Shown: positions 30-60,728, numbered from the stretch's first letter. The stretch: 64,000 nucleotides of DNA from an uncultured Bacteroidia bacterium (GCA_938086785.1 CALKCM010000003.1:155104-219103); one strand, 5' to 3'. Notes: generated by a model from the letters alone, not told the origin. Made by a program: numbers and translations.

Positions 30-79
30 GAAATAACAAACAAAGCCCCAAAATTTCGCATTTTGAGGCTTTATTTTTT
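30..79 (-). terminator. Rho-independent terminator downstream of dnaK, probably bidirectional
   Basis: Read on the minus strand, AAAGCCTCAAAAT / ATTTTGGGGCTTT forms a stem of about 13 bp (one G-U, 42..72), followed by a U-rich GUUUGUU. On the plus strand the same hairpin is followed by ATTTTTT. Confidence 0.7.
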
Positions 80-97
80 GAATAATTAACTTAAACT

Positions 98-2020
98 TTA
101 CTTTACTTCTTCAAAGTCAACATCTTCTACTGCTCCATCTTCTGAATCACCTGCTTGTGCATTAGCTCCATTATCTGCTCCAGTTTCGGGCTGTCCTTGG
201 CTTGCATCGGCAGCTTGGGTGGCTTGGGCCATCTCTTCACTGGCCGCCTGCCATGCTGTATTTAGTTCTTCGGATGCGGCATCTATTTCTTCGAAGTTTT
301 TGCTATCTAAAGCAGCTTTTAGTTTGTCTTTTGCCGCTTCAATAACTGTTTTCTTTTCTTCTGGAATTTTATCTCCGTATTCTTTCAATTGCTTTTCAGT
401 ACTAAAAACAAGACCATCGGCAGCATTTACTTTATCTGCTTCTTCTTTCACTTTCTTGTCTGATTCAGCATTGGCTTCAGCTTCTTGGCGCATCTTATCA
501 ATTTCTTCTTGACTCAATCCGCTGCTCGCTTCAATTCTAATTTTTTGTTCTTTGCCAGTGGCTTTGTCTTTGGCACTCACATTTAAGATACCATTTGCAT
601 CAATATCAAAGGTTACTTCAATTTGAGGTACGCCTCTTGGAGCGGGCGGTAAACCATCTAATATAAATTTACCAATGGTTTTGTTATCTTTAGCCATTGG
701 ACGTTCTCCTTGCAACACATGTATTTCAACCTGGGGTTGATTTTCTTGCGCTGTACTAAAGGTTTCTTGCTTTTTTGTGGGGATGGTTGTGTTGCTTTCA
801 ATCATTTTGGTAAACACATTTCCCATGGTTTCAATACCAAGGCTTAGAGGAGTAACATCCAATAAAAGAATGTCTTTAACCTCTCCTGTTAATACTCCAC
901 CTTGAATGGCTGCACCTATAGCAACAACCTCATCTGGATTTACCCCTTTACTAGGAGCTTTGCCAAAAAATTCTGTTACCAATGTTTGAATCGCTGGTAT
1001 TCTAGTTGAACCTCCAACAAGTATCACCTCATCTATATCATTCGAAGTCATGTTCGCATCTTTCAAGGCTTTTTTACATGGCTCTAATGTTCTCTTGATT
1101 AAATCTGCCGCTAGTTGCTCGAACTTAGCTCGGCTTAGTTTGCGAACTAAATGCTTTGGTACATTGTCTACAACCGTTACATAAGGAAGGTTAACATCTG
1201 CTTCTGAGCTGCTACTTAATTCAATTTTAGCTTTTTCAGCTGCTTCTTTAAGACGTTGAAGCGCCATTGGATCTTTTCTTAAATCCATGCTTTCTTCAGC
1301 CATAAACTCTTCAGCCATCCAATCAATAAGTACTTGATCAAAATCATCACCTCCTAAATGAGTATCACCGTTGGTTGATTTTACTTCAAATACGCCATCA
1401 CCTAATTCAAGTATAGAAATATCAAATGTTCCTCCACCCAAATCATAAACGGCAATTTTCATTTCCTTATCGGTCTTATCTAAACCGTAAGCCAGGGCTG
1501 CCGCAGTTGGTTCGTTAATAATACGCTCTACTTTTAAGCCAGCAATCTCGCCAGCTTCCTTAGTAGCTTGTCTCTGTGAATCATTGAAATAGGCCGGCAC
1601 AGTTACTACCGCACGGGTTACTTCTGTTCCTAAAAAATCCTCGGCTGTTTTCTTCATTTTCTGAAGAACCATTGCACTTATTTCTTGAGGAGTATAATTT
1701 CTATCTCCAATTTTAACTCTGGGAGTGCCTCCTTCATTTATCACATTGTAGGCCACTCTACCTGTTTCATTCTTTACATTATCAAAGGATTCACCCATGA
1801 ATCGCTTGATAGAGGCAATGGTGTTTTGTGGATTAGTAATGGCTTGACGTTTGGCAGGATCTCCCACTTTGCGCTCTCCATTTCCATTATCTAAAAATGC
1901 TACAATAGAAGGTGTCGTTCTTCGACCCTCGCTGTTAGTAATTACTACGGGCTCATTTCCTTCCAGCACGCTCACGCAGCTGTTTGTTGTTCCCAAATCA
2001 ATTCCTATAATTTTACTCAT
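98..2020 (-). CDS. dnaK: Molecular chaperone DnaK (Hsp70)
   Basis: [24 protein letters not shown] and the full-length Hsp70 pattern are present, with an acidic C-terminus ending DVDFEEVK. The start is taken at the ATG giving MSKIIGID (2020), not at the 13-codon longer ORF start (2059). Confidence 0.97.
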
Positions 2021-2185
2021 ATTCAGGTAGGTATTATCAATTTGCTTGCCATGACACAATTTCTGTCATATTGTCATTGTGGGCCATGAAGTTTTTTTTA
2101 CTAGGCGATAAACGGCAGAAATTTTGCCATTTGAAATGCCAAATTATCATTAAAAGGATATCTTGGCTATCTTAATAAGAAGCCC

Positions 2186-2890
2186 TTATTTTTTAGGTTT
2201 AAGCGTGTACCTGTAACGCAATCCAACTATACTGGTCGACAATATGGGAGTGTTATTCACTTGCCTTTCAAAACGGTAAAACAATCCAAATTCCCCAAGC
2301 TGTTTGGCCTGGTAATTTGTTCCTAGGGTTATCCTAAACTTATTTACTGATGCTGGAACTCCTAACTCATTAAATAATTCAGCGGAGACTTTTGGATCAA
2401 ATGGCCATTTTTTGATGTTATACAAGGTTGAAATTTTAAAGCGCAGGGTGTACTCTGTTTTATCTCCCTCTGCTTCACTTACTTTTCTTTCGTTTTTGGC
2501 TTGCAATCGAGCCCGATAGCTAAACTTAAATGCCTCTAGCTTTTGCTTATACCCTAAATCGGCGTTCAATCGCACATGACTCTCATAACCGGTCTTTTTC
2601 CCCTTGGTATCATTTTTCGAAATATGCCTTGCTCCCAAGCCAAGATACATTTTTTTTGAAATATAATATTTAAGATTTATTTCCGTAAAATATTGGTCTG
2701 TAGTTTTATACTTGTCTTTTCTTCTCAGCTGTTGCTCTATGCCAAAAACCCATTTCTTAGTGGGTTTGAAACAAAACTGTGTGCTAATCCACAACTCCTG
2801 ATCTTCCAGTTCTGCACTTTGAGCAGACAGGGAGATATTATGTAGTAAAAATATACCAGCTATAAGTACAGGTACTTTATGTTTGATCAT
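2186..2890 (-). CDS. DUF2490-like outer-membrane beta-barrel protein with signal peptide
   Basis: N-terminal signal peptide (VLIAGIFLLHNISLSAQS). Alternating hydrophobic/polar strands rich in Y/R/K/N are typical of small OM barrels. Its start overlaps the upstream gene stop as ATGA. Confidence 0.55.
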   Translation of the reverse strand: MIKHKVPVLIAGIFLLHNISLSAQSAELEDQELWISTQFCFKPTKKWVFGIEQQLRRKDKYKTTDQYFTEINLKYYISKKMYLGLGARHISKNDTKGKKTGYESHVRLNADLGYKQKLEAFKFSYRARLQAKNERKVSEAEGDKTEYTLRFKISTLYNIKKWPFDPKVSAELFNELGVPASVNKFRITLGTNYQAKQLGEFGLFYRFERQVNNTPILSTSIVGLRYRYTLKPKK

Positions 2891-3489
2891 TGATTGCTGA
2901 GATAGGTAATTTTTATTTCAGCTGAATCCTTCAAAAAATCTATGTTCCCAACTTCAATTTCTTTAATTTTTAAGCCTGTACGGGTTTCTAAATCCTTTTT
3001 TAGCATTTCAAAATGCTGAGGTTTTATATTTTCTATAATTTCGTATTGAATGGTCTTTGTTGTTTCGCGCCCAACAAGCCATAAGCGTTCAATCACGTAC
3101 AAGGCTAACACAATAATTACGTTGCTACCTATAATCTCGGCGTAGCTCATTTTTTGGTTGGCGAGAGAATTAATGACAGCCACCCCAATAACCACAAAAA
3201 GGTACGTCATTTCTTTTATGTCAATCGCATTGGTGCGGTAGCGTATAATTCCAAAAATAGCGAAAAGACCCAAAGCCATTCCAATATCTAATTCATACTT
3301 TTTGAGGGTGAAACATAAAAAGAAAACAATAATACCAATCATGTAATAGGTAAAAAAGTAGTCTTTTCGCTTGGTAGCTGTGTAGTATAAACCTCTAATA
3401 ATAATGGTTAAAAAGCCCAAATTAAGGGCAAATCGGAACATCATTTTGTAGAAGTCATCGTCGAATAAGGGTATGCCTAGAAAGTCCAT
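2887..3489 (-). CDS. DUF4956-like integral membrane protein (about 5 TM helices plus a short soluble C-terminus)
   Basis: Five hydrophobic segments. This family commonly partners bacterial VTC-domain proteins. The ATG lies 1 nt after the stop of the VTC gene. Confidence 0.6.
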   Translation of the reverse strand: MDFLGIPLFDDDFYKMMFRFALNLGFLTIIIRGLYYTATKRKDYFFTYYMIGIIVFFLCFTLKKYELDIGMALGLFAIFGIIRYRTNAIDIKEMTYLFVVIGVAVINSLANQKMSYAEIIGSNVIIVLALYVIERLWLVGRETTKTIQYEIIENIKPQHFEMLKKDLETRTGLKIKEIEVGNIDFLKDSAEIKITYLSNQ

Positions 3490-3490
3490 A

Positions 3491-4222
3491 TTATGCTGTT
3501 AATTTTGTGATGGTTGAAATTTTTTGTTTGAAATGATTTTGCTTGAGTTTTGGATAGATACTTGCTAAACCAATGCAGTATTTACTGATACTATAAGGGT
3601 AAATGGATTCTTTTCGTAGCGCCGCAACTATGGGAGATTGCCGGTTAAATTTTTCTTGCTTTAACTCCACTATCATTAAGTCCGGGTTTAGTATTTTTCC
3701 GTTGTAGTCTAAATTTAAATCAATGGTAACGCGCTCTTTTAATGCCGAATTTACTAAAGTTATTCTCTTAAAGCTATTTCTCAAGGTTTTTATTAAGTCT
3801 AAGTTGTGGTTTGTGATCTGTTCAATGAACTGCAAAGATTCACTGGAGAGTGTGTTTTCATTAGCTGCTCTTGCAATTCTATTTTTCACTGTATTTCCCT
3901 TGGCATCTTTTTGTTTTATTTCTAAAAAAAATAGTCCAGATTCTACATAGTTTCTAATTCGAATTTTGGTTCGTCTTAAAATTTTATTGTGATGATCTAA
4001 GTAGAATTTATGTTCTTTCGTATCGTAATAGTCAGATGCATAGGTCATTAACCGATTTCCACTAATTTCTAAAACGGAGTACTGAGATTGTACCATTTGT
4101 AGTATTAGAGGCAATTGTTTCGCATGAATAATAAACTTAGTATCCTTACGCTTCATTAAAGCGACTTGATCCATTTGATCGAGTGAAATGGGCTCAAATT
4201 TATTCAGGATTGAAGGTATCAA
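3491..4222 (-). CDS. VTC-domain (polyphosphate polymerase / triphosphate-tunnel type) protein
   Basis: LNKFEPISLDQMDQVALMKRKDTKFII at the N-terminus and repeated E-x-K strands (FFLEIKQK, IVELKQE) fit the VTC/CYTH-like tunnel fold. No signal peptide. The only upstream start available is TTG at 4222. Confidence 0.65.
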   Translation of the reverse strand: MIPSILNKFEPISLDQMDQVALMKRKDTKFIIHAKQLPLILQMVQSQYSVLEISGNRLMTYASDYYDTKEHKFYLDHHNKILRRTKIRIRNYVESGLFFLEIKQKDAKGNTVKNRIARAANENTLSSESLQFIEQITNHNLDLIKTLRNSFKRITLVNSALKERVTIDLNLDYNGKILNPDLMIVELKQEKFNRQSPIVAALRKESIYPYSISKYCIGLASIYPKLKQNHFKQKISTITKLTA

Positions 4223-4354
4223 AATGGGAGTTGTTAAAAGCAGTTTTGCTTATTCTTCTTAGACGAAACTAGGTTTGATTTCCTTCGGAAGCCATAGGCT
4301 TATCTTTTAATCTAGCTGAATAATTGTTATCTAATCAATTGTAATGAAGGGATA

Positions 4355-5686
4355 TTATTGTCCACTAGCAGTATTCAAAGGCATATCCTTATGGGCATTT
4401 AACTTGGGGCTCTTTACGAATAACATGAGAATTATGCCAAGGATAAAGTAACTCATAAGAACAAGTATGCTGTTCCTCATGCTCCCCGTAAAGTGTTCTA
4501 TCAAACCAAAAGAAAGGGTTCCCAGCACAATGGCTAATTTTTCAGCAACCTCGTAAAAACTAAAGAAACTTGTATTGTCCACATCGCCAGGAATAAGCTT
4601 TGCATAGGTTGATCGACTTAGGCTTTGCACTCCACCCATAACAATACCAACCACACAAGCCAAACCAAAAAACTGATTGGGTTTACCTGCCTGCACAAAA
4701 TAGGCAATGACACAAGCAATGGCCCATATAATTAAAGAAACAATAAGGGCTTTTCTATTTCCTTGTTTCTTGGCTAGATAGGCAAAAAAGTAGGCCCCGG
4801 CAATTCCAATAAGCTGAATCAGTAGTATTGTTTTTAATAAGTCTCCCGATTCCAGTTTTAATTGTTTAGAACCATATATAGCCGCCACATAAATAACAGT
4901 TTGAACTCCCATGGTATACACAAAAAATGAAGAAAGAAAAAGTTTCAAAGTTTTCATTTGTTTAACCTGCTGGTATACCTTTCTCAATTCCTTATATCCC
5001 TTGCCTAGCATATTTGCTTTTATGGAACTGGTTTTAGGAACTTTTGGTAACTTAATAAGAGGCCAAAGTGACCAGGAGGCCCACCATACACCAACGGTTA
5101 AGAAACCAACACGAAAGGGGAGCGTATTGGTCGCAGATGGAGCTTCCATACCAAACCATTCGCTTTTTTGTAAAAACAATAAATTAAGAATTAATAGGGT
5201 TACACTTCCAATGTAACCAAGGGTAAAACCTCTGGCCGATAGTCGGTCAAATTTATCAGGCGAGGCAATGTCTGGAAGATAGGAATTGTAAAATACTAAA
5301 CTTCCAGCAAAGCCCACTGTGGCAAGCATAAAGCAAGATAGCCCAAAGAAGAGGTTGGTCCCGTAAAAAAAATACATGGCACTGCATGATAAAGAACCAA
5401 TGGCCACAAAAAACTTCATAAATGCCTTCTTCTGCCCACTAGCATCTGCAATACCACTTAAAATGGGAGCGAGCAATGCTACCAGTAGAAAGCTAATACT
5501 TAGACTGTATTCGTAAAGTACAGAGGACGCCACTTCACCCCCGAAAAGAGTGGTTGTTTTAGGGGTAAATTTTTCGTAAAATATAGGAAATATAGCACTT
5601 GAAATACTGAGTGAGTATACAGAGTTGGCCCAATCATACATACACCAGGCTGTTAGGGTGCTTTTATTGTTCTTAACAATTGACAT
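4355..5686 (-). CDS. MFS transporter, UMF1 (Atg22-like) family
   Basis: About 12 TM segments with an N-terminal TAWCMYDWANSVY motif typical of UMF1. The first ATG is at 5686. The ORF extends to a TTG at 5710. Confidence 0.8.
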   Translation of the reverse strand: MSIVKNNKSTLTAWCMYDWANSVYSLSISSAIFPIFYEKFTPKTTTLFGGEVASSVLYEYSLSISFLLVALLAPILSGIADASGQKKAFMKFFVAIGSLSCSAMYFFYGTNLFFGLSCFMLATVGFAGSLVFYNSYLPDIASPDKFDRLSARGFTLGYIGSVTLLILNLLFLQKSEWFGMEAPSATNTLPFRVGFLTVGVWWASWSLWPLIKLPKVPKTSSIKANMLGKGYKELRKVYQQVKQMKTLKLFLSSFFVYTMGVQTVIYVAAIYGSKQLKLESGDLLKTILLIQLIGIAGAYFFAYLAKKQGNRKALIVSLIIWAIACVIAYFVQAGKPNQFFGLACVVGIVMGGVQSLSRSTYAKLIPGDVDNTSFFSFYEVAEKLAIVLGTLSFGLIEHFTGSMRNSILVLMSYFILGIILMLFVKSPKLNAHKDMPLNTASGQ

Positions 5687-5723
5687 TTGGTTGCAATTTA
5701 CATTGCCCAATCTAAAATGTCAG

Positions 5724-8306
5724 TTAATCATTGCTAAAAACCAGGTCTTTATCAAAATCAACTCGAATATTTCCTCCTGGTTTTAGGGCTCCAGAAAGAA
5801 TTTTTTTACTTAATTCATCCAAAAGACGCTTTTGCATGACGCGTTTTAAGGGTCTTGCGCCAAATTGAGGATCGTAACCCAATTGTGCCAACCAGTCTAA
5901 AGCGGAGGCCGTCAATTCGAGCGTAATTTTACTTTCTTCCAATCGTTTTTGTATAAGTTCCAATTGAATTTCGGCAATTTTAGTAATGCTTTCGCGATTC
6001 AAGGGTTCGAACATGCTCACCTCATCAATTCTATTTAAAAATTCAGGACGGATGGTCTTTTTAAGAAGTTGGAATACCTCGTTTTTAGTTTTACTCAATA
6101 CTTGGTCCCTGTTTTTGTCATTCAGTTCATCAAAATTGGATTGAATAAGCTCACTCCCAATATTGCTAGTCATGATTATAATGGTATTTCTAAAGTTGGC
6201 GGTTCGTCCTTTGTTATCGGTTAATCTACCATCGTCTAATACTTGAAGGAGTATATTAAACACATCGGGATGTGCTTTCTCAATTTCGTCCAATAATACC
6301 ACAGAGTAGGGACGGCGCCTTACGGCTTCGGTGAGTTGACCGCCTTCATCATAACCTACATATCCTGGAGGCGCTCCGAGCAATCGACTTACCGTATGCT
6401 TTTCTTGGTACTCGCTCATGTCTATTCGAACCAAGGCTTCTTCGGTGTCGAAAAGGTATTCAGCCAGGGCTTTGGCAACTTCTGTTTTACCTACACCAGT
6501 GGTTCCTAAGAAAATAAAACTACCAATGGGTTTTTTGGGATCCTGTAGGCCTGCTCGGCTTCTTCTAATGGCGTTGGCCACAGCTTCTATAGGTTCTTCT
6601 TGCCCCACTACACGATTATGCAATACCTGTTCAAGGTGAAGTAATTTTTCTCTCTCGCTCTGCATCATTTTAGAAACGGGTATTCCCGTCCATTTGCTAA
6701 TAACCTCGGCAATATCCTGAGTATCTACTTCTTGTTTAACCAAGATATTTTTGCTTTCGCCCATCTTAACACTCAAGGCAAAGAGGTCTTCCTCTGCTTT
6801 TTTTATAATTCCGTAACGGAGCTCGGCCACACGGCCGTAATTTCCGTCTCGTTCGGCCTGTTCTGCTTCTAATTTAAAATTTTCTATGTCTTCTTTCTTT
6901 TGCTGGATAGATCCAAGAACTTGTTTTTCATTTTCCCATTGAGAACGAAAGGTTTTTTGATCTTCTTGCATGTTCGCAATCTTTTTGTTGAGTTCATCCA
7001 GTCGATCCTGATCACTTTCTCTTTTGATGGCCTCACGCTCAATTTCCAATTGCATGATTTTTCGATTTAACTCATCCAATTCTTCTGGAACAGAATTCAT
7101 TTCTAAACGCAGTTTAGATGCTGCCTCGTCCATTAAATCAATGGCTTTATCTGGTAGGAAACGATCACTTATGTATCGCTGACTCATTTCTACGGCACTA
7201 ATAATGGCTTCATCTTTGATGCGCACTTTGTGATGTGTCTCGTACTTGTCTTTTATTCCTCTCAAAATACTAATGGCTTCTTCCGCATCTGGTTCATCCA
7301 CTAAAACGGTTTGAAACCGACGTTCCAAAGCCTTATCTTTCTCAATATACTTCTGATATTCGGCTAAAGTAGTGGCGCCAATGGCCCTTAATTCTCCTCT
7401 TGCTAAAGCCGGTTTAAGGATGTTGGCCGCATCCATTGCACCTTCACTTTTTCCAGCTCCTACTAAGGTATGAATCTCATCAATGAAAAGCACCACCTCA
7501 CCATTGCTACTAACGACTTCTTTTATTACTGATTTTAAACGTTCCTCAAACTCTCCTTTGTATTTAGCACCTGCAATAAGTGCTCCCATATCAAGATTAA
7601 ATACCGTTTTGGATTTTAGATTTTCTGGGATATCGCCGCGAATAATTCGATGGGCTAATCCTTCCGCAATGGCAGTTTTTCCAACGCCTGGCTCACCAAT
7701 TAGAATGGGATTGTTCTTTGTTCTCCTGCTTAATATTTGAAGGATTCTGCGTATTTCGTCATCTCTGCCAATGACAGGGTCCAATTTTCCATCCTTGGCT
7801 GCTTGATTTAAGTTTAAGGCATATTTGGATAAGGCATCAAAGGAGGCTTCGCCAGTATCGGACGTTATTTTATTTCCTTTTCTTAATGCTAAAATAACCT
7901 GTTCTACCTCCTTCACTCTAAACCCTGCATCCTTTAAAATAGTACTTGCCGAACTTTTAGAATCGATAAGGCCCAGTAACAAATGTTCATTGGATATGAA
8001 TTCATCTGAAAATGAACTCATTTTTTTATCTGCCAAGGCCAATACTCTCGAAGCTTCTGTGGCAAAATAAGGAGTGCCTCCTTCCACTTTACCAAAGGTT
8101 TTTATTTCGGCTGCAGCAACCTGTGTTACACGATCCAGATTAGCGGATAGCTTTCCTGCTAAGAGGGTTATAAATTCATTATCGGTTTGTATAAGCGCTT
8201 GCAATAGATGAATAGGTTCTATGCTTTGTTGGGAGGCCGCAAGAACGCTGTTTTGCGCCTGTTGTAAGGTCTCTTGTGCCTTTAAAGTGAATTTTTGTGG
8301 GTTCAT
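5724..8306 (-). CDS. clpB: ATP-dependent chaperone / disaggregase ClpB
   Basis: 860 aa. Two AAA+ modules (GEPGVGKT and GTTGVGKT Walker A), a long middle coiled coil and a Clp N-domain. Confidence 0.97.
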   Translation of the reverse strand: MNPQKFTLKAQETLQQAQNSVLAASQQSIEPIHLLQALIQTDNEFITLLAGKLSANLDRVTQVAAAEIKTFGKVEGGTPYFATEASRVLALADKKMSSFSDEFISNEHLLLGLIDSKSSASTILKDAGFRVKEVEQVILALRKGNKITSDTGEASFDALSKYALNLNQAAKDGKLDPVIGRDDEIRRILQILSRRTKNNPILIGEPGVGKTAIAEGLAHRIIRGDIPENLKSKTVFNLDMGALIAGAKYKGEFEERLKSVIKEVVSSNGEVVLFIDEIHTLVGAGKSEGAMDAANILKPALARGELRAIGATTLAEYQKYIEKDKALERRFQTVLVDEPDAEEAISILRGIKDKYETHHKVRIKDEAIISAVEMSQRYISDRFLPDKAIDLMDEAASKLRLEMNSVPEELDELNRKIMQLEIEREAIKRESDQDRLDELNKKIANMQEDQKTFRSQWENEKQVLGSIQQKKEDIENFKLEAEQAERDGNYGRVAELRYGIIKKAEEDLFALSVKMGESKNILVKQEVDTQDIAEVISKWTGIPVSKMMQSEREKLLHLEQVLHNRVVGQEEPIEAVANAIRRSRAGLQDPKKPIGSFIFLGTTGVGKTEVAKALAEYLFDTEEALVRIDMSEYQEKHTVSRLLGAPPGYVGYDEGGQLTEAVRRRPYSVVLLDEIEKAHPDVFNILLQVLDDGRLTDNKGRTANFRNTIIIMTSNIGSELIQSNFDELNDKNRDQVLSKTKNEVFQLLKKTIRPEFLNRIDEVSMFEPLNRESITKIAEIQLELIQKRLEESKITLELTASALDWLAQLGYDPQFGARPLKRVMQKRLLDELSKKILSGALKPGGNIRVDFDKDLVFSND

Positions 8307-8423
8307 TGATTAGGTATTAAACAACAAATGTGTCTCCAATCTCTTTGGAGGCATCTTTGGAGCCCTTTTACAAGTCAAAGTGGCATTTATCCTAGGTAAA
8401 ACGGCTATTCTTAGGACAAAACG

Positions 8424-8996
8424 TCACATGTCTGTAGGCTCACTAAAGCCTTCTAAATCTTCTTTGTTCGTTCCGTATTCCTCATCAAAGATGCTTTTCT
8501 TTTCAGATTCTTCCGATTTATCTTCTTCTTCTTCTTCTTTCGTATCTAAAGCACTCAGGGTATTTTTCATAAGCATAGCAGCCAAGTCATCCATATCAGC
8601 TGATTCTTCGTCCTCTATAATGGCTGAAGGCCTTTGTTTTGGAGCGAAGCCTTTTGATTTTATGAGCTTTGGATAAGTTTCAGATGCTACTGTTTCGGAA
8701 AAACCTATCATCTCGCAGTACAAAACCCAATCCTGGTCCTCATCAGCAAGGTAAATAAATTTCTGATAGGGTTCGAAAACCGCATTTTTAAGAAGTGTCT
8801 TTTCTAAATTGGGAATCGATTTCTTTTTGCGCCAGGTATCATCACTAAGAATAAATACTCCTGCGAAAGTGCCATCGAATCCTATGGCAGCTTGAATGGC
8901 TTCGTGAAATTCCAAAAAATTGTTGCTGGGTTTTATTTCAAACGTTCGTGAAACATCCGCGTCATCCTCAAAAGTTAACCTAAACTTGTATACCAT
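8424..8996 (-). CDS. Hypothetical protein with a possible MM3350/pRiA4b-ORF3-like N-terminal fold and a polyacidic C-terminal tail
   Basis: VYKFRLTFEDDADVSRTFEIKPSNNFLEFHEAIQAAIGFDG resembles the start of that family. The C-terminal 60 aa are E/D-rich, including EEEEEED. ATG start. Confidence 0.4.
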   Translation of the reverse strand: MVYKFRLTFEDDADVSRTFEIKPSNNFLEFHEAIQAAIGFDGTFAGVFILSDDTWRKKKSIPNLEKTLLKNAVFEPYQKFIYLADEDQDWVLYCEMIGFSETVASETYPKLIKSKGFAPKQRPSAIIEDEESADMDDLAAMLMKNTLSALDTKEEEEEDKSEESEKKSIFDEEYGTNKEDLEGFSEPTDM

Positions 8997-13785: not shown

Positions 13786-13888
13786 TCTAAGTGCAAATTA
13801 AAACAGAAAGAGCGATCTACGTTTAGTTTTTTGGAATACCGAATAAATTGTGGAACTCTTAAATGAAAACTATACGATCTTTGCAATA

Positions 13889-16132
13889 ATGGTGGTTTTA
13901 GATAGTCCTACGTATGCTCCTTATAAAGATAAGCTTCAGGAAAAGTATGACTATTTGTTAAGCTTGTTACACGATCGTGGAAAAAGCAAGCTTAAGAAGG
14001 TGGCGAAGGCTTTTGAAATGGCTGCCAATGCTCATGATGGAGTTAAACGCAAGAGTGGAGAACCTTATCTGTTCCATCCTTTAGAAGTAGCTATTATAGC
14101 GGTTGAAGTGCTCGGTTTAGGAAGCACAAGCGCAATTTGTTCCTTGTTGCATGACACGGTGGAGGATACTGAACTTACCTTGGAGGAGATTGAAACGGCT
14201 TTTGATCCAAAAATCAAGAATATTGTCGATGGACTTACAAAAATTTCTACGGTATTTGATACGGTTGAAAAGAATATAAGTATTCAGGCTGAGAACTTTA
14301 AGAAAATGCTTCTTACGCTAGGGGAAGATCTTAGGGTCATTTTAATTAAGTTATGTGATCGACTTCACAATATGCGAACCATTCATGCAGTATCGCAAAA
14401 AACACGTTTAAAAATCGCATCGGAGACCTTATATATTTATGCTCCCTTAGCTCATCGTTTGGGTCTAAATGTAGTAAAGTCAGAGCTTGAAGATTTATCT
14501 TTAGAGGTAACAGATCCATTGCTTTACATTGAGATTAAGACAAAATTAGAGGCGCAGAAACAGGATCGGGAGGATTATCTTAAGAGGTTTATTAAGCCCT
14601 TAAATGAGGAGCTTAATGCGTCTCAACTATCTGTATTTGATATCCAAAGTCGTACAAAAACGGTCTTTAGTATTGCGCAAAAAATGCGTAAACAGGGCAT
14701 TCCCTTTGAGGAGGTATACGATTTGTTTGCTATTCGAGTGATACTTGAGAGCCCCTTAAATCTCGAGAAAAACGATTGTTGGAGAGTATATGCAATTATA
14801 TCGCAGCAATACACTTCCAATCAAAGTCGCTTGCGTGACTGGCTTAGTAAGCCTAAGAGCAATGGATATGAGGCTTTGCATACCACTATTATAGGTCCAG
14901 ACAATAAGTATATTGAGGTTCAAATACGTAGCAAAAGAATGGATGATGTAGCCGAAAGAGGTGTTGCTGCTCATTGGAGATATAAATCTAAAGAGGGAGA
15001 ATTAAAGCCTAATGCGCAGGATATGGCTTTTGATCATTGGATGGCTCAAGTAAAGGAAACCATAAATAATAAAGACTTAAGCGCCATTGAATTAATCAAT
15101 GAGTTTAGATTTGGAATTTTAGCCGAAGATATCTTCATTTTTACACCAAAAGGGGAAGTAAAACGATTGTCAAAAGAAAGTACGGCCCTTGATTTTGCTT
15201 TTGCTATCCATACGGACGTGGGATACACGACTATTGGGGCTAAGGTGAATGGGAAATTAGTTCCAATTGGTACAGAACTAAGCAATAGTGATATTGTGGA
15301 GATCCTGACCACTTCTAAAAACAGGGTGAATTTAGACTGGCTTAAGATTGTTAAAACAGGGAAGGCTAGAAATAAGATAAAAGAATACCTTAACTCTCAA
15401 AAAAATGCGTTTAGTGCAGAAGGAAAAGAAATATTACAACGAAAATTTAAGTCGGCGAAACGTGCCTTCAATAATAGAAATGTAGAGCATTTTATAAAGT
15501 TTCACGGGTTTACTGTCCCCAATGATTTTTATCATGCCTTGGCCATGGGTGCCGTTAAACAAGAAAAGTTAAAGGTGGCTGCTTTTTTTAAAGGAAACCC
15601 AATTGAAAAGGTAAAAAAACAGCCGAAAAAAGGAGAGAGTAAGAGTTCATTTCCTTCAAAAAATAAGCTGAGTAGCGCTATTGTAGTGGGAGATGAGTAT
15701 GAGGTAGAATATGCCATGGCGGCATGTTGTAGTCCGGTTCCAGGAGATCAAATTTTTGGTTTTATTACAGTGAATGATGGAATTAAAATTCACCGAAGCA
15801 ATTGTTTAAATGCCACAAATTTAATGAGTGAATATGGCTATAGAATTGTTCATTGTAACTGGCGAGATAAGAGCTATGATCAATCGTTCATTAGTGAATT
15901 GATGGTAAATGGAATTGATGATGTGGGAATTGTGAGTAGTATTACCGATATCATTTCGAAAGATTTGGGTGTAAATATGCGCAGCATAAATATTAGAGCA
16001 GGATCTGAGGGGACTTTTGAGGGTGTGGTAGAGGTTATGGTCAAAAATCTATTTACCTTGGAAAAGCTAATTTCTACCATCCAAAATAAACATCAATATA
16101 TACAGGTAAAACGTTTAGATACTCTTAACTAA
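13889..16132 (+). CDS. relA: Bifunctional (p)ppGpp synthetase/hydrolase, RelA/SpoT (Rsh) family
   Basis: HD hydrolase domain (HPLEVA..LLHDTVEDT), synthetase domain, TGS domain and C-terminal ACT-like domain. First ATG is at 13889. The ORF also opens at GTG 13850. Confidence 0.93.
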   Translation: MVVLDSPTYAPYKDKLQEKYDYLLSLLHDRGKSKLKKVAKAFEMAANAHDGVKRKSGEPYLFHPLEVAIIAVEVLGLGSTSAICSLLHDTVEDTELTLEEIETAFDPKIKNIVDGLTKISTVFDTVEKNISIQAENFKKMLLTLGEDLRVILIKLCDRLHNMRTIHAVSQKTRLKIASETLYIYAPLAHRLGLNVVKSELEDLSLEVTDPLLYIEIKTKLEAQKQDREDYLKRFIKPLNEELNASQLSVFDIQSRTKTVFSIAQKMRKQGIPFEEVYDLFAIRVILESPLNLEKNDCWRVYAIISQQYTSNQSRLRDWLSKPKSNGYEALHTTIIGPDNKYIEVQIRSKRMDDVAERGVAAHWRYKSKEGELKPNAQDMAFDHWMAQVKETINNKDLSAIELINEFRFGILAEDIFIFTPKGEVKRLSKESTALDFAFAIHTDVGYTTIGAKVNGKLVPIGTELSNSDIVEILTTSKNRVNLDWLKIVKTGKARNKIKEYLNSQKNAFSAEGKEILQRKFKSAKRAFNNRNVEHFIKFHGFTVPNDFYHALAMGAVKQEKLKVAAFFKGNPIEKVKKQPKKGESKSSFPSKNKLSSAIVVGDEYEVEYAMAACCSPVPGDQIFGFITVNDGIKIHRSNCLNATNLMSEYGYRIVHCNWRDKSYDQSFISELMVNGIDDVGIVSSITDIISKDLGVNMRSINIRAGSEGTFEGVVEVMVKNLFTLEKLISTIQNKHQYIQVKRLDTLN

Positions 16133-34110: not shown

Positions 34111-36690
34111 ATGAAGAAAACGCTACAAATTTTATTTACCTGCGCTATCCTGGGCGTTATTTATATTGCTCAAGGGAACTCAGGTGGCCCAAGTTGGGGA
34201 TATACTAGCGCTCCTGGGAGCTCTAATTGTAGAGGTTGTCACAGCACTTATGGCTTGCAAAATTCGGGTCCTTTACATTCTAAAATAGATTTACGAATGA
34301 ATACTTTCAAAGGGGGCGGATATTTGCCCGATTCGTCTTACGAGTTCTTGCTAGTTTTTAAGGATACGCTGAACTCTGCAGCTGGTTTCCAAATGACTGT
34401 TTTAGATGAGAATGATGAACCAGCTGGTACGTTTGCGACACTAGATGCTAGAACTCAAGTTGGTTCTAAGTTTGTGAGTGGAAAAACAAGAAGTTTAATC
34501 GGACATACAAGTTCGGGTAATAGCCATCAGGCTTCAGACTCCATTTCATGGCGGATAAAATGGACTGCACCTACTAAAAACCTTGGAAAAATTACGTTTT
34601 ATCTGAATGTTGTTTCCGCCAATATGGCCATGGGCAATAGGGGAGATTATGTTTTTGATAAGACGTTTACGGCAGAACCCTCTAACCTCTTACCAAAAGC
34701 AACAATATCTCTCAAAACATTAAAAGCGTGCAGAAGATCTGCTTTGAGTTTTGAGGCTGCCACCACCGGAACTCCTACCTCATATGACTGGTCTTTTCCT
34801 GGGGCATCTCCAAGCAGTAGTACACAAAGTAAACCTTCAGTAGAATACTTAAATTCGGGTAAGAAAACAGTATATCTAAGCACAACAAATATCTATGGAA
34901 AAGGAGGAGTTGATACCTTTGATTTCACTGTTTTAAATGGTCCATTTAGGGCCTTTATTGAGCAATCTAAATCTGGAACTGCTCGTAAATGTAATATAGA
35001 AGATCTTGTTTTAACCGTATCTAAGCGTTCTTCCGAAAACTATATTTGGTTTCCGGATTCAGTTTTGCAGGATTCATTTGTGGTGACCAAGCCAGGCCTG
35101 TATAGTGTAAAATCTGTCCTTAAAACAACAGGCTGCACAGTAGATGGAAACCGCGTAAATGTGGTAAACCATGATTCCACCTATTTTAGTGTGAATAAAA
35201 TTAGTTCAGATACATTGTGTGCTGGATTAGACTCCATAAGGTTTACTATAAATTCAGGTTCAATAATTACAAATAGTTTTGTTCTTGATGGAGTAGATAC
35301 AGTCAGTTTAAACACAAATTCCATCACCTTGTCTCCGGTGCTTATTTCAGGAGCTAAAACCTTCAAAGTATATGCAAGGGATAGTGTAAACTGTGCAATG
35401 AGTGAACAAGACGTTGCCTTCTACTTTAAAGATCAAGAGCCAGCACCTCGTTTATTGGGTTCTACCAAGCGAAATTTACAGGGGATACAGCTCAATTGGC
35501 GCAGCATGCCCCGTGTATTGGTCTATGAGGTGAGTATTAATGGCAAAAGCTATTTCCCCTCTAGTTCAGGAGGAAAAGATACTTTTTATACCCTTACAGG
35601 ATTAAATCCTAACACCACGTTTACGTATGATGTAAGAGGAGTGACCTTTTCTCAATGCCTCAGTTCTAAGGCTGCGTCAGGTGTCGATTCATCCTTGGCA
35701 TGTAGCCCATTAAACTTTACTATTGCGGGTGATAAGATGTATTGTGAAGGAGATACTGCAGAGATTGAAATTAGCGGGGTTTCAGTACCTAATCACAAGC
35801 TTTATATAAACAACTCTTTAGCATCAAATTCAATGAATTATTCATTTGCTAAATTAGAGTCTCAAAGTGCTACTGTTTTTATTTCCGATTCAACAGGTCT
35901 CTGTTCTTCAGACACACAAAGAATTAATATCATTTATGATGTTATAGATAAGCACCTTATCGATACCACGTACCGACCCATATGTAGTGAAGCTAGTTCA
36001 TCTCGAAATATTCAGTTTTCATTGAATCCGAAAACATCGAAAAAATATAATTGGTATGTAAATGGAACTTTGCGTACAAGCGGTAGTTCAGGTTCACAAT
36101 TAATTGCCATTAAAAATAATGACCAAGTATTTGTTCGAGCAGAAAATGGAGCCTGTCAATCGAATACAGACACGGCCACTATATCTTACTTAAAAGCACT
36201 TAATTGTAAAATAGCTGTGAGACGAGGCGAAGATGGAATTTATTCCATCACATCCGAGGAAAAAGGAGGGGTGCATAGCTGGTTTATTAATGGGATAGAG
36301 CAGTCAAATACATCAGATAGTTTTGATTATGACTTTTCTAGTTTAGCTGGAACAACAGCGGATATAACGCATGTCTTAGATTTGGGTTCAAATTGCAGTT
36401 GTATCGATTCAACTTCAATAGATTTGACCGTGTTGTCCGTAAATAAGCCAAATTCAACTCCATTTAAAGTTTTTCCAAACCCCGCTAATGATTTTATTAT
36501 AGTTTCCTCTAACTCACCTGATACTCATATTCCTTACCAAATTTTATCGAGCACTGGTCGCTTGGTTAAAGAGGGAAATATTAATGGGAGGGCTAGTCGG
36601 ATTAAAGTCAACGGCTTAGCTAAAGGACTTTATCAATTAGTGCTTGGTGAAAATCTACAGGATGTATTTAAAATAGCTGTAATGCATTAG
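34111..36690 (+). CDS. Large secreted T9SS cargo protein (type A C-terminal sorting domain) with N-terminal CXXCH-containing domain and PKD/Ig-like repeats
   Basis: Signal peptide. GGPSWGYTSAPGSSNCRGCHS near the N-terminus. PKD-like YDWSFPGASPSSS...YLSTTNIYG. C-terminal FKVFPNPANDFIIVS...KGLYQLVL is a typical Por/T9SS tail. Confidence 0.8.
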   Translation: MKKTLQILFTCAILGVIYIAQGNSGGPSWGYTSAPGSSNCRGCHSTYGLQNSGPLHSKIDLRMNTFKGGGYLPDSSYEFLLVFKDTLNSAAGFQMTVLDENDEPAGTFATLDARTQVGSKFVSGKTRSLIGHTSSGNSHQASDSISWRIKWTAPTKNLGKITFYLNVVSANMAMGNRGDYVFDKTFTAEPSNLLPKATISLKTLKACRRSALSFEAATTGTPTSYDWSFPGASPSSSTQSKPSVEYLNSGKKTVYLSTTNIYGKGGVDTFDFTVLNGPFRAFIEQSKSGTARKCNIEDLVLTVSKRSSENYIWFPDSVLQDSFVVTKPGLYSVKSVLKTTGCTVDGNRVNVVNHDSTYFSVNKISSDTLCAGLDSIRFTINSGSIITNSFVLDGVDTVSLNTNSITLSPVLISGAKTFKVYARDSVNCAMSEQDVAFYFKDQEPAPRLLGSTKRNLQGIQLNWRSMPRVLVYEVSINGKSYFPSSSGGKDTFYTLTGLNPNTTFTYDVRGVTFSQCLSSKAASGVDSSLACSPLNFTIAGDKMYCEGDTAEIEISGVSVPNHKLYINNSLASNSMNYSFAKLESQSATVFISDSTGLCSSDTQRINIIYDVIDKHLIDTTYRPICSEASSSRNIQFSLNPKTSKKYNWYVNGTLRTSGSSGSQLIAIKNNDQVFVRAENGACQSNTDTATISYLKALNCKIAVRRGEDGIYSITSEEKGGVHSWFINGIEQSNTSDSFDYDFSSLAGTTADITHVLDLGSNCSCIDSTSIDLTVLSVNKPNSTPFKVFPNPANDFIIVSSNSPDTHIPYQILSSTGRLVKEGNINGRASRIKVNGLAKGLYQLVLGENLQDVFKIAVMH

Positions 36691-37934: not shown

Positions 37935-38072
37935 ATAAAACGAAGCGTATAACACCGCTTTAACCTTATGCTTCAAAACTGTTGGTAATTTTGACTTGCT
38001 AAGAAGAAGTAATATTGGCAATTTTGAGTAATGATAGCCTTTGGCAAACTCTTTGTAATTTGTATATCAAAC

Positions 38073-40118
38073 ATGCGTAACTCAGCTTTAATTATTTTTT
38101 TGATTATTCCTTTTATTGCCCTGAGCCAAAGTCTCGAGGAACTCAAGGTAACTGCCGCCAAAGAGATTCTTCGTGTTGATTTATTAGACGGACTGGAGGA
38201 TGAAAGCATACAAATGCAAACTCATTCGCAAACCCTCAGATCTCAGACTGCTTTTTTTAAGCAGTTTCGAAAAATTAAGAATAATCTCATAAGAGCAGAG
38301 AAGTTCGATCAAAATGTCCTTCCGCAATGGCGCGAATGGGTTTTTGCACTTCAACATTTGTCAGAGAATAATACAAGATACCTCGCTTTTTACGAGCAAT
38401 ACTTTCATATGGTTGCCATCGTTACGGAATCAAGAGATGAACAAAAAGAAAAAGAATATCTTAAAAATCATGTGATGTTTGCTTTGGATGGCATACGTTA
38501 TTATATAGACAAGCCATACGACAAAGAAGTACTATTGCATGCTGCTACCATAAAACCATATGAGGTTTTAACTAAATATCTTGCCTATAATAGAGAACCT
38601 TATTTTTTAGAGTTATTAGAAATGGTAGCTATGAATGACCCCAATGCTATTAAACAATATTTTGCATCCAATCATCTCATAAGCAGTACATTAAGCATGA
38701 GTAAAAATCCTGTAGTATTGGATTTATATAAGATATTTAGACGCTATGGATCGGGGAGTTATAGTTATGCAAATATTCATAGCATACACAATAAGCGTCT
38801 AACTCTAGATGAGAGTGATAAGCTAACGAAGAATAAAACAGAGTGGTTCAGAGCCTTATCCCAGCTTAAATCTCAAAAAAATATTTTAGGTAATTATTCA
38901 GTTGATAAAGAATTAGAGAAATATAGCCTCAAAGCTATTATACAAATAAACCTTCTACACGAGCGCCCCGATGCCATTCGATTTGCCTCATGCAATAAGT
39001 ATAATGCACATGAAATGTATACTTTGATGGTTTATGCTCAAGATGAAATATTTACCAGTACATACTTGGGCATGTTTAAGCGACTTTTGGCAAAAAGAAA
39101 AGAAAAAAGCATGTATAAACTCATGGAAAACATGGGATTTAATTACTTTAGGACTTTTGTTCAGATGGCCGCAGGATACAATACTTTGCAAGAGTTGCTG
39201 TCAACTATGACTGTCGAAGAGCAGGATTTATTGATGGAACGTGTGGTAGAAGGCCTGGATAAAACAGGTGGGAATTTACAGCCAGCAGTTGAAGTGGCAG
39301 ATATATATGGAAGTCTCCAATCCGATACACTAAAACAAATCTTATCCTCCAAAGTGAAAAGAGAGCTAAAAAGGTGTGTGAGTGAAGATAATGACTATGG
39401 CATTCGTTTGTACGGCTTGTTATACAAATTGGCCGGCTATGACCCCATTGAAATCACAACCGAATCCTATTCATTCGATGTGCCTGATCTTTTGAAAGTT
39501 TCAGGTAAGGAACTATTCCCTGATGGGACGAATATACAGCAGCATATTTTCTATAACGACGAAGATGGAGAGGCTGCATTTAGTCTATTCCTTGCTCATT
39601 TTGGGGGAGATAAAAACTGGAAGATTTCGAAATTTGAGAAATATACACTTATTGAATCCACCCAAGGAAAATCGATAAAAATGTACTTAAACAGTCCTAA
39701 ATTCGAAAATAGTGCAAATGTGGTTAGTGCCATATTCGAAAAAAATACCAGATATCCAGACGTGGTGGTACACCGAGGACACAGCTATTATTTATATGCA
39801 ACGGTAAAGCGATTAACCAATAACGCTAAAGTGGCTATTTTAGGCTCCTGTGGAGGATATCACAACATGGCCAGTGTTCTGGAAAATGCGTCGGATGCAC
39901 AGATTGTAAGTAGTAAGCAAATTGGAACTTGGACAGTAAATAATGTCTTAATAAAAGATATGGCTGATCAAATGCGAGTTGGAGATGGTGGAATCGACTG
40001 GCAAGAACTATGGGCTGAACTTGACGTTAAACTAGCTAGAAACGATAAATGGAGCGACTACGTGCCCCCGTATAAAAATTTAGGGATGAAGTTCATTAAA
40101 GCTTTTGAAACGCTGTGA
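38073..40118 (+). CDS. Secreted hypothetical protein (681 aa) with C-terminal His/Cys-dyad domain, possibly a caspase/CHAT-like clan CD fold
   Basis: Signal peptide MRNSALIIFLIIPFIALSQS. A helical N-terminal two-thirds is followed by PDVVVHRGHSYY (nt 39771..) and AKVAILGSCGGYHN (Cys at nt 39849..39851). I recognise no family with certainty. Confidence 0.5.
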   Translation: MRNSALIIFLIIPFIALSQSLEELKVTAAKEILRVDLLDGLEDESIQMQTHSQTLRSQTAFFKQFRKIKNNLIRAEKFDQNVLPQWREWVFALQHLSENNTRYLAFYEQYFHMVAIVTESRDEQKEKEYLKNHVMFALDGIRYYIDKPYDKEVLLHAATIKPYEVLTKYLAYNREPYFLELLEMVAMNDPNAIKQYFASNHLISSTLSMSKNPVVLDLYKIFRRYGSGSYSYANIHSIHNKRLTLDESDKLTKNKTEWFRALSQLKSQKNILGNYSVDKELEKYSLKAIIQINLLHERPDAIRFASCNKYNAHEMYTLMVYAQDEIFTSTYLGMFKRLLAKRKEKSMYKLMENMGFNYFRTFVQMAAGYNTLQELLSTMTVEEQDLLMERVVEGLDKTGGNLQPAVEVADIYGSLQSDTLKQILSSKVKRELKRCVSEDNDYGIRLYGLLYKLAGYDPIEITTESYSFDVPDLLKVSGKELFPDGTNIQQHIFYNDEDGEAAFSLFLAHFGGDKNWKISKFEKYTLIESTQGKSIKMYLNSPKFENSANVVSAIFEKNTRYPDVVVHRGHSYYLYATVKRLTNNAKVAILGSCGGYHNMASVLENASDAQIVSSKQIGTWTVNNVLIKDMADQMRVGDGGIDWQELWAELDVKLARNDKWSDYVPPYKNLGMKFIKAFETL

Positions 40119-40633
40119 TGAGGTATTTAAGTGCCCTTGGTTTTATTCTAATTCTGTTTTCATGTAATTCAGATTTAAAGGAGGGTAGATTAAAAGACGA
40201 AACGCTTGTTGACACATTGGGAATTACAGCATATGTCTCATTCAACTCCGAATGCCCCAATTGCTTGAGATCTAAATCTGCACTCATTGATGCAGCAACA
40301 GCATATCCTAATGTTAAATGGAAAGCATTACTTATCGATGATCTTGATAGCAACACTTTGCCCGATGCTATCTTCCAAAAATATCAAGCGGCTGATGCCA
40401 AAAACATAGCTAAAAAGCTTCTTTTTACGGTTACCCCAGAGGTTCTATTGATGAGTCATGGAAGAAAAGTGTATCAGGGTGCCATTACAGACCAGAACAA
40501 AGTACTTGGACAAGGCAAACTACTGCCCCAATTGAATTATCTAATGGATGCATGTACAGCTCTCGAATTTAATCCAGACACCACTTTACAGAGTACTAAA
40601 GCCATGGGTTGTTTTATTGAGTTTAACCTTTAG
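40115..40633 (+). CDS. Thioredoxin-fold (redoxin-like) lipoprotein with CxxC motif
   Basis: Lipobox ILFSC. CPNC at nt 40253..40264. The C-terminal pattern VYQGAITDQ...NYLMDA...GCFIE resembles the YRGRIDD...GC.I redoxin subfamily. ATGA overlap with the upstream gene. Confidence 0.6.
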   Translation: MMRYLSALGFILILFSCNSDLKEGRLKDETLVDTLGITAYVSFNSECPNCLRSKSALIDAATAYPNVKWKALLIDDLDSNTLPDAIFQKYQAADAKNIAKKLLFTVTPEVLLMSHGRKVYQGAITDQNKVLGQGKLLPQLNYLMDACTALEFNPDTTLQSTKAMGCFIEFNL

Positions 40634-60679: not shown

Positions 60680-60728
60680 TTGTTAGCGTTCATTTTTATT
60701 TTGGAAACTATTGAATTATTTTTACCGA

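Follow-up and report, generated by a model that had tools for sequence, protein, structure and literature searches.

A Bacteroidota gene module with a VTC-type tunnel domain, a DUF4956 membrane protein, and a DUF2490 barrel as a candidate envelope-coupled polyphosphate synthase

Polyphosphate (polyP) in bacteria is attributed to PPK1, which uses phospho-histidine, and PPK2, which is a P-loop kinase, and we know of no mechanism that places bacterial polyP outside the cytoplasmic membrane. In eukaryotes, the VTC complex (yeast Vtc4/Vtc3/Vtc1; PDB 7ytj, 8i6v, and 3g3q) has the vacuole as its target compartment. Here we analyze a 64,000-nucleotide stretch of DNA from an uncultured Bacteroidia bacterium (GCA_938086785.1 CALKCM010000003.1:155104-219103; hereafter, the window), in which three adjacent open reading frames (ORF1 to ORF3) encode a VTC-type tunnel domain, a DUF4956 membrane protein, and a putative DUF2490 outer-membrane (OM) barrel. 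We tentatively interpret this triad as a VTC-type polyP synthase that may be coupled to envelope export.

Relatives of this module are known to databases and have been mentioned in passing in a few papers. VTC-domain and DUF4956 genes, in part together with CotH, were already described next to pel operons of Gram-positive bacteria (bioRxiv 10.1101/768473; bioRxiv 10.1101/2024.04.20.589940). VTC and CotH were also noted in the NELoc-2 locus of C. perfringens (PMC2879425); the partner genes of VTC in that locus carry the annotation "tubulin/FtsZ" and are presumably DUF4956 genes. The DUF4956 and DUF2490 pair BT3498-99 of B. thetaiotaomicron occupies one line in an iron-stimulon table (PMC10434189). 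As the original prediction for this locus had stated, the searchable literature contains no experimentally defined function for the bacterial VTC-domain/DUF4956 pair.

We regard the module as a bacterial version of the VTC principle. Like the eukaryotic complex, it contains a member of the Pfam VTC family with a tunnel fold, it has the triphosphate/Mn2+ ligands including the polymerase-specific Lys458, and it genetically couples a soluble polymerase domain to a polytopic membrane protein, which suggests synthesis-coupled translocation. Unlike the eukaryotic complex, it contains neither an SPX domain nor the DUF202 (Vtc1-type) three-helix channel subunits, and its assembly is therefore not a VTC complex. 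Instead, the membrane partner is the unrelated DUF4956 protein, encoded by a separate gene, an OM barrel is added, and the proposed target compartment is the periplasm or cell surface. ORF1 itself differs from yeast Vtc4 by a Phe at the position of Y359 and by an extra invariant Asp on strand 1.

The Gram-positive pel and NELoc-2 clusters contain the same VTC-domain and DUF4956 pair, and CotH, which occurs in these clusters, is also the dominant neighbour of the pair in Bacteroidota. In contrast to these clusters, the Bacteroidota module adds the DUF2490 OM barrel and is unlinked to pel genes, and in the clade of the window it has no CotH and sits between clpB and dnaK. PPK1 and PPK2 would share with the module the product, polyP made from a nucleoside triphosphate, but their folds and mechanisms are unrelated to those of the module, and they are cytoplasmic and not encoded with envelope conduits. 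In its logic of a polymerase, an inner-membrane conduit, and an OM barrel in one operon, the module may be likened to the synthase-dependent exopolymer secretion systems for cellulose (Bcs), alginate, Pel, and poly-N-acetylglucosamine (PNAG), in which a cytoplasmic-face polymerase works with an inner-membrane conduit and a dedicated OM beta-barrel. This likeness would be one of analogy, since the systems are not homologous, the module would make an inorganic polymer, and it has no periplasmic tetratricopeptide-repeat scaffold or cyclic di-GMP receptor.

The tunnel enzyme encoded by ORF1

The three ORFs lie on the minus strand and form one operon:

3491..4222, minus strand: ORF1, cytoplasmic VTC-type triphosphate-tunnel (TTM) domain, putative catalytic subunit of a polyphosphate polymerase (PF09359, fold model, ligand mapping)
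2887..3489, minus strand: ORF2, DUF4956 inner-membrane protein, proposed membrane partner or conduit of ORF1 (PF16316, low-confidence model, hydropathy)
2186..2890, minus strand: ORF3, strongly basic DUF2490 protein with an N-terminal signal peptide, putative outer-membrane beta-barrel (PF10677)

The ORF list and the raw sequence confirmed that they constitute one coupled unit, with the junctions as originally predicted. The last base of the ORF1 stop codon (243 amino acids, TTG start) is 3491, and ORF2 (200 amino acids) begins with an ATG at 3489, so that the gap is the single base 3490, and an ATGA at 2887-2890 is common to ORF2 and ORF3 (234 amino acids). All three domain assignments of the original prediction were upheld by Pfam matches far above the gathering thresholds, and an NCBIfam scan of the triad proteins returned nothing informative. 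The idea that the module is a defence system was rejected, because no PADLOC model was matched by any of the three proteins.

ORF1 matched the Pfam VTC family (PF09359) with an E value of 8.3e-26 and 91.4 bits (gathering cut-off 23). Residues 24-223 span profile positions 1-235 of 235, and VTC is the only Pfam domain in the 243 residues. The peptides KRKDTKFII, FFLEIKQK, and IVELKQE correspond to residues 24-32, 98-105, and 184-190, respectively. An AlphaFold2 model built on an alignment of 37 homologues had a predicted local distance difference test (pLDDT) score of 92.2 and a predicted template modelling (pTM) score of 0.88. When this model was searched against the PDB with Foldseek, ranks 1-12 went without exception to chains of Vtc4 or Vtc3 (E 7e-12 to 2e-8; TMq 0.58-0.66), and the best matches included Vtc4 catalytic domains with AppNHp-Mn2+ or polyP (3g3r and 3g3q; E ~1e-11). 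The ygiF protein, thiamine triphosphatase (ThTPase), CYTH proteins, and AtTTM3 ranked below Vtc4 and Vtc3. The tunnel enzyme originally predicted from short sequence patterns is thus supported by a high-scoring model whose best fold matches are Vtc4.

A word-index search returned 581 homologues of ORF1, mainly from Flavobacteriia and Bacteroidia, which carry the NCBI names "polyphosphate polymerase domain-containing protein" or "VTC domain-containing protein". The 37-sequence profile matched 5926 representatives of 50%-identity clusters (E up to 1e-3), which implies that the ORF1 family is large.

We next compared ORF1 with Vtc4 residue by residue. In the cryo-electron microscopy structure of the VTC complex, Mn2+ is chelated by Vtc4 E426, and the triphosphate is held by K200, R264, R266, K281, R361, K458, S457, and Y359 (bioRxiv 10.1101/2023.01.27.525886). 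In the same study, mutation of any Vtc4 ligand residue lowered cellular polyP, and K458 alone among the ligands differs in Vtc2 and Vtc3, the paralogues without activity, which have Ile or Leu at this site. The Vtc4 reference was checked against PDB 8i6v_E and was identical over residues 190-480. Mapping was done by local hhalign for the N-terminal half and by MAFFT L-INS-i for the whole domain; the two methods agreed on the N-terminal pairs, and the C-terminal pairs come from MAFFT L-INS-i only. A global hhalign of Vtc4 against the bacterial family gave a nonsense alignment. The aligned pairs (Vtc4, then ORF1) were:

R196 and R25; K200 and K29; R264 and R88; R266 and R90; E279 and E101
K281 and K103; K294 and K113; R296 and R115; R361 and R153; R373 and R164
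D377 and D168; E426 and E186; K428 and K188; S457 and S213; K458 and K214

All of these ORF1 residues are invariant in the 37-homologue alignment, in agreement with the tunnel-lining Lys, Arg, and Glu residues of the original prediction. Eight of the nine triphosphate/Mn2+ ligands of Vtc4 are identical in ORF1 (K29, R88, R90, K103, R153, E186, S213, and K214), whereas the ninth, Y359, is Phe151 in ORF1 and Phe in all bacterial homologues aligned. The equivalent of K458, K214, is Lys in 37/37 homologues, and the bacterial proteins therefore bear the signature of the active subunit, Vtc4. Taken together, profile, modelled fold, and mapped ligands indicate that the catalytic domain of ORF1 is a member of the VTC family, and we infer from them that ORF1 is a putative ATP-dependent polyP polymerase.

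Strand 1 of the tunnel bears on an alternative in which the direction is reversed, such that environmental polyP or tripolyphosphate enters through the basic barrel DUF2490 and through DUF4956 and is hydrolysed by the tunnel enzyme for phosphorus scavenging. Most characterised TTM/CYTH enzymes are phosphohydrolases, and ygiF, ThTPase, and AtTTM3 are among the fold matches of ORF1. The source is apparently an aquatic Bacteroidota population with relatives from environmental metagenomes, which would suit scavenging. The replacement of Y359 by Phe and the extra invariant acidic residue D27 on strand 1, where Vtc4 has T198, could also be read in this way. However, an ExExK motif on strand 1 is characteristic of the hydrolytic TTM/CYTH enzymes (ygiF-type triphosphatases and CyaB-type cyclases), and this motif is absent from strand 1 of ORF1, which reads K24-R-K-D-T-K29-F and aligns to R196-Q-T-T-K200 of Vtc4. 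Moreover, the polymerase-specific Lys is invariant, every hydrolase was outranked by Vtc4 structures in the fold search, and the conserved neighbours of the module described below include no Pho-type or pst genes. We therefore consider hydrolytic scavenging quite improbable.

Conservation of the triad and its neighbours

The genomic context of ORF1 relatives was surveyed in one genome per GTDB species. This survey yielded 401 loci, of which the best 80 were fetched (L001-L080) and their gene order was determined by tblastn with the window proteins. VTC, DUF4956, and DUF2490 were colinear on one strand in 79 of these 80 loci from other species; in the sole exception, the contig ends inside DUF4956. 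The junction between VTC and DUF4956 measured -13 to +14 nt in all 80 loci, and that between DUF4956 and DUF2490 did not exceed 34 nt in 76 of 79. That the three genes stay together, a point which the original prediction had put forward for checking, is far beyond chance, and the junctions are consistent with translational coupling.

Missing from the original prediction was the usual fourth partner of the module, a secreted CotH-family kinase. When neighbouring ORFs were clustered and cluster representatives were scanned with Pfam, a CotH-family kinase with a lipoprotein signal was found within 6 kb in 60 of the 73 loci with sufficient flank, usually directly downstream of DUF2490 (e.g., L079:11139-12560; also L008, L034, and L061). 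The other 13 loci had no CotH nearby. CotH was not detected in the 64-kb window (best tblastn E value 0.4) or at the loci of close relatives, and the window locus, lacking this kinase, is an unexceptional representative of a very large family.

The frequency of this kinase suggests another interpretation, in which a surface polymer or protein is phosphorylated jointly by the tunnel enzyme, CotH-type kinases, and polysaccharide machinery, DUF4956 serves as a carrier or flippase, and no free polyP is made. Besides the adjacency of CotH in Bacteroidota, contiguous CotH, VTC, and DUF4956 genes accompany pel exopolysaccharide operons in streptococci, clostridia, and bifidobacteria (bioRxiv 10.1101/768473; bioRxiv 10.1101/2024.04.20.589940), and a glycosyltransferase locus adjoins the cluster in C. 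perfringens NELoc-2 (PMC2879425). By contrast, the triad is intact and conserved in the window and its clade despite the lack of CotH, the 13 further loci dispense with a nearby CotH as well, and the ligand set of ORF1 is that of a polyP polymerase. We consider such phosphorylation of a surface acceptor highly improbable.

In 17-21 Flavobacteriaceae loci, genes for an extracytoplasmic function (ECF) sigma factor, a putative anti-sigma factor, an LTXXQ (CpxP/Spy-like) protein, and a secreted EF-hand protein lie upstream on the same strand, and genes for YHYH and Cthe_2159-type proteins lie downstream. These loci come from related genera and are therefore not independent observations. The Flavobacteriaceae neighbourhood points to an envelope-stress, Ca2+-linked surface system. 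Nearly all conserved partners of the module are extracytoplasmic, being secreted proteins or lipoproteins, so that ORF1 is the only cytoplasmic enzyme in an envelope-directed gene set. There were no Pho-type or pst genes among these conserved neighbours.

As to the known polyP kinases, PPK2 was not found in the window by tblastn, and Pfam scans revealed no PPK1-like protein among the ten largest unassigned ORFs of the window. In one sister lineage (L085-L088), a PPK2 gene lies 7 kb beyond dnaK, which implies that PPK2 and the VTC module can coexist; the L092 lineage has no PPK2 at the same site. Separately, synteny with L081 identifies a 760-amino acid ORF at 13850-16132 on the plus strand, approximately 10 kb from the triad, as a RelA/SpoT (p)ppGpp synthetase/hydrolase. 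In E. coli, (p)ppGpp influences polyP levels.

Membrane partners and a possible route to the envelope

ORF2 matched Pfam DUF4956 (PF16316) with an E value of 1.1e-53 and 181.9 bits (cut-off 30.6). It is the most conserved protein of the triad, with 70-93% identity across Bacteroidota, and has at least 7967 homologues. An AlphaFold2 model of low confidence (pLDDT 67), alongside which hydropathy peaks were computed, contains five predicted helices (residues 11-136), matching the approximately five transmembrane helices originally predicted, followed by a C-terminal beta-alpha-beta-beta domain (residues 141-198). Charged residues in and between the helices are invariant (K63, K64, E66, D68, R83, R85, E93, E118, and E134). 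The positive-inside rule, applied to the KRK and RYR loops, suggests that the C-terminal domain faces the cytoplasm, where it could meet ORF1. No relative of ORF2 was found in the PDB by sequence or by fold, with the Vtc1, Vtc3, and Vtc4 chains included, and no fold match had an E value below 0.04; ORF2 is unrelated to the Vtc1-type channel helices. Its last approximately 60 residues gave faint, non-significant Foldseek matches to ACT-type regulatory domains, and a streptococcal DUF4956 homologue has been described as four transmembrane helices plus an intracellular ACT domain (bioRxiv 10.1101/2024.04.20.589940).

These properties of ORF2 raise the alternative that polyP made by ORF1 stays in the cytoplasm without export, that DUF4956 is a tether or regulator, for example a ligand sensor with an ACT-like C-terminal domain, and that DUF2490 is a porin for phosphate or another anion, through which substrate is supplied. 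A cytoplasmic location was proposed for the polyP of the streptococcal homologue, where the other VTC subunits are missing (bioRxiv 10.1101/2024.04.20.589940). The weak ACT-type matches, non-significant as they are, and the lack of similarity to Vtc1-type channel helices fit a tether or sensor as well. However, this alternative leaves unexplained why the module is embedded among genes for secreted, lipoprotein, and Ca2+-binding products with a dedicated OM barrel, and why, in every one of the 80 loci, no more than 14 nt separate VTC from the gene for a polytopic membrane protein. The many invariant charged residues in the membrane helices of DUF4956 would also be unusual for a mere anchor. Overall, we regard a purely cytoplasmic product as unlikely.

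ORF3 matched Pfam DUF2490 (PF10677) with an E value of 8.9e-23 and 81.4 bits (cut-off 29.8), two families of OM barrels, PorP_SprF and BBP2, gave weak secondary matches, and its N-terminal hydrophobic leader ends in SLSA. DUF2490 is listed in TCDB as the putative porin family TC 1.B.81 (PMC4827864), and a 2026 preprint reports predicted OM barrels and Sec signal peptides for the family. The profile match and this literature support ORF3 as a putative OM barrel. The mature protein contains 41 Lys and Arg versus 22 Asp and Glu residues, which corresponds to a net charge of +19 and an isoelectric point of 9.8. OprP and OprO of Pseudomonas are phosphate-selective and polyphosphate-selective porins, and ORF3 may be analogous to them as a basic OM barrel that is possibly phosphate-selective, although DUF2490 is a different and much smaller family (approximately 210 mature residues).

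By sequence search, DUF2490 had at least 3 homologous proteins. The gene has been lost in the 70%-identity sister lineage (L085-L088), where 121 nt are left between DUF4956 and dnaK, and it is absent from the described Gram-positive VTC and DUF4956 clusters, whose hosts have no outer membrane. Absence from Gram-positive clusters and dispensability in one sister lineage are as expected for an OM-specific accessory of a VTC and DUF4956 core.

In the proposed mechanism of synthesis coupled to export, ORF1 would bind ATP-Mn2+ in its basic beta-tunnel and add the gamma-phosphate to a growing polyP chain, as yeast Vtc4 does. ORF1 would dock on an oligomer of the DUF4956 protein, probably via the cytoplasmic beta-alpha-beta-beta domain, and the chain would be threaded through this inner-membrane protein into the periplasm. 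The basic DUF2490 barrel might then pass polyP through the outer membrane or anchor it there. The product would be extracytoplasmic polyP. It could bind cations (Ca2+), store phosphorus, form a surface matrix, or be used as substrate by the secreted CotH-type kinases found with the module in most other species. Four elements of this scheme are conditional: catalytic activity, the contact between ORF1 and ORF2, the transport direction, and what the barrel does. Four lines of evidence argue for it: ORF1 has the fold and ligand set of an active polymerase; it is always operon-linked to a polytopic inner-membrane protein with conserved charges; an OM barrel is added in the diderm Bacteroidota and missing from the Gram-positive clusters; and the other conserved neighbours are secreted. 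The polymerase and translocase idea of the original prediction is therefore reasonable and now better supported, through the predicted catalytic residues and the conservation of the operon.

Several observations weigh against polyP synthesis coupled to export. PDB sequence searches with ORF1 and with the 37-sequence profile (E up to 10) did not reach Vtc4, and local hhalign of the bacterial family against Vtc4 gave a probability of only 34-37%, so that the homology of ORF1 to Vtc4 rests on the Pfam model and the fold. The Phe that replaces Y359 in all bacterial homologues corresponds to a Y359F change that cut polyP in yeast (bioRxiv 10.1101/2023.01.27.525886), and the invariant D27 at the site of Vtc4 T198 implies that metal binding may differ. 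DUF4956 has no detectable likeness to the channel helices of Vtc1, Vtc3, and Vtc4 or to solved structures, and its model is poor (pLDDT 67); a pore in DUF4956 is therefore hypothetical. The basicity of DUF2490 is not universal, because net charge varies from -7 to +29 among its orthologues, the median being +6. Finally, the searchable literature contains no enzyme assay or functional study of any bacterial VTC-domain member, and the authors of the streptococcal study considered that polyP may stay cytoplasmic (bioRxiv 10.1101/2024.04.20.589940).

A further-reaching claim, that diderm bacteria possess a third, VTC-type route to polyP which is mechanically coupled to export through a DUF4956 channel and a DUF2490 barrel and constitutes the first dedicated polyP secretion system, appears doubtful at present. 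If these proteins do make and export polyP, the polymer would be present in the envelope or outside the cell, where ATP is lacking and where surface CotH kinases might use it as a phosphodonor or scaffold, which would provide a biochemical rationale for the secreted CotH kinases and for the Gram-positive pel-linked clusters. The module would then be a simple prokaryotic counterpart of the eukaryotic VTC complex for synthesis-coupled translocation, and estimates of phosphorus cycling by marine and gut Bacteroidota would need revision. The polyP-export hypothesis is directly testable, because it involves three small genes with orthologues in tractable species, such as BT3498-99 and their upstream neighbour in B. 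thetaiotaomicron and those of flavobacteria.

The clpB-dnaK setting

In the window, the same-strand order is clpB (5724-8306), an Atg22-like transporter of the major facilitator superfamily (MFS; 4355-5710), the triad, and dnaK (98-2059). The features around the triad are:

5724..8306, minus strand: clpB, 860 amino acids, context gene (translation; Clp_N, AAA, AAA_2, and ClpB_D2-small matches on the same-length L081 and L085 orthologues)
4355..5710, minus strand: Atg22-like (UMF1-type) MFS transporter, clade-specific neighbour (PF11700, E 2.6e-69)
4259..4287, minus strand: conserved block, candidate promoter or operator of the triad (spacer alignment)
98..2020, minus strand: dnaK (Hsp70), context gene (translation; HSP70 Pfam matches on the L081 and L085 orthologues)
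76..38, minus strand: terminator-like hairpin of 17 pairs after dnaK (terminator scan)

Because the genes of relatives are called at 428 amino acids (MFS) and 639 amino acids (DnaK), the MFS protein probably starts at M24 (ATG 5641) and not at the mechanical TTG 5710, which leaves a gap of 82 nt and not 13 nt to clpB, and dnaK probably starts at ATG 2020 and not at the mechanical TTG 2059.

The run from clpB to dnaK is kept in a lineage with 84% identity (L081-L084), in a lineage whose DUF2490 is 77% identical (L092-L093), in the population of the window itself (L089-L091), and, minus DUF2490, in the 70%-identity lineage (L085-L088). By contrast, in the 80 other species the 10 kb on either side of the module contained no ClpB, DnaK, or Atg22-like MFS gene. 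The clpB-dnaK context is thus confined to one narrow clade (at least 70% VTC identity) and not to one genome, and the MFS gene lies outside the conserved module, of which it was rejected as a member on the same count. The run noted in the original prediction is real and recurs in related lineages, whereas the general tie to the DnaK-ClpB pair that had been drawn from it does not hold. We conclude that the location of the module next to clpB and dnaK reflects a clade-specific insertion site, or lineage-specific synteny, and is not evidence of chaperone function.

Conserved blocks upstream of clpB, the triad, and dnaK were compared within the clade. In the 132-nt spacer before ORF1, the block CGAAGGAA-N8-TAGTTTCGTCTAA (4259-4287), which reads CGAAGGAA-N8-TAnTTTCGTCTAA as aligned across the clade, is invariant in the window, L081, and L085 while its flanks diverge, and all 7 loci that carry it belong to the clade with the clpB-dnaK context. 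This block is a candidate promoter or operator of the triad. The consensus of the Bacteroidota -7 box is TAnnTTTG, and the block holds a version with one mismatch; exact TAnnTTTG occurs at chance frequency in the sequence and is absent from the three spacers, and scans for sigma-70 promoters and terminators performed no better than on shuffled sequence. Upstream of clpB (8307-8423, minus strand), CACTTTGACTT is conserved in three lineages and is unlike the dnaK and VTC blocks. Just upstream of dnaK (2021-2185, minus strand), a 45-nt block, TGACAATATGACAGAA...CATGGCAAGCAAATTGATAAT, is near-invariant in three lineages with diverged flanks and is probably the promoter or operator of dnaK, and a near-palindrome, TTGGCATTTCAAATGGCAA, lies further upstream of it. 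The three different blocks argue for separate control, and the arrangement would fit three separately controlled units side by side. Read-through across the run may occur, in that no minus-strand terminator was predicted inside it and the only strong one follows dnaK (76..38).

This setting could instead mean that the module is tied to the ClpB-DnaK disaggregase, is co-induced by heat shock, and supplies polyP as a chaperone-like agent. The continuous same-strand arrangement, in which the first predicted minus-strand terminator is the one after dnaK, its retention in at least 3 related lineages, and a second stress context in Flavobacteriaceae, where the module often follows the ECF sigma/anti-sigma and LTXXQ genes, are compatible with such a role. 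Yet neither ClpB nor DnaK is near the module in any of the 80 other species, the clade itself has three distinct upstream motifs, with that of the triad not common to the chaperone genes, and an exported polymer would not reach cytoplasmic aggregates. A chaperone-linked function is therefore very improbable, and the clpB-dnaK linkage, the most eye-catching part of the locus, does not generalise and is no guide for experiments.

A few other features of the window are recorded here. A 695-amino acid ORF at 38031-40118 (plus strand) and the overlapping downstream 172-amino acid ORF at 40115-40633 (plus strand) had no Pfam match at E up to 1e-5. Just upstream of clpB, a PRiA4_ORF3-like protein with an acidic tail is encoded at 8424-8996 (minus strand), a position that is kept in L081 and L092 and not in L085. 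In confirmation of a Bacteroidota source, C-terminal sorting domains of type IX secretion (Por_Secre_tail) are present on the proteins encoded at 34111-36690 and 60711-61988 (both plus strand).

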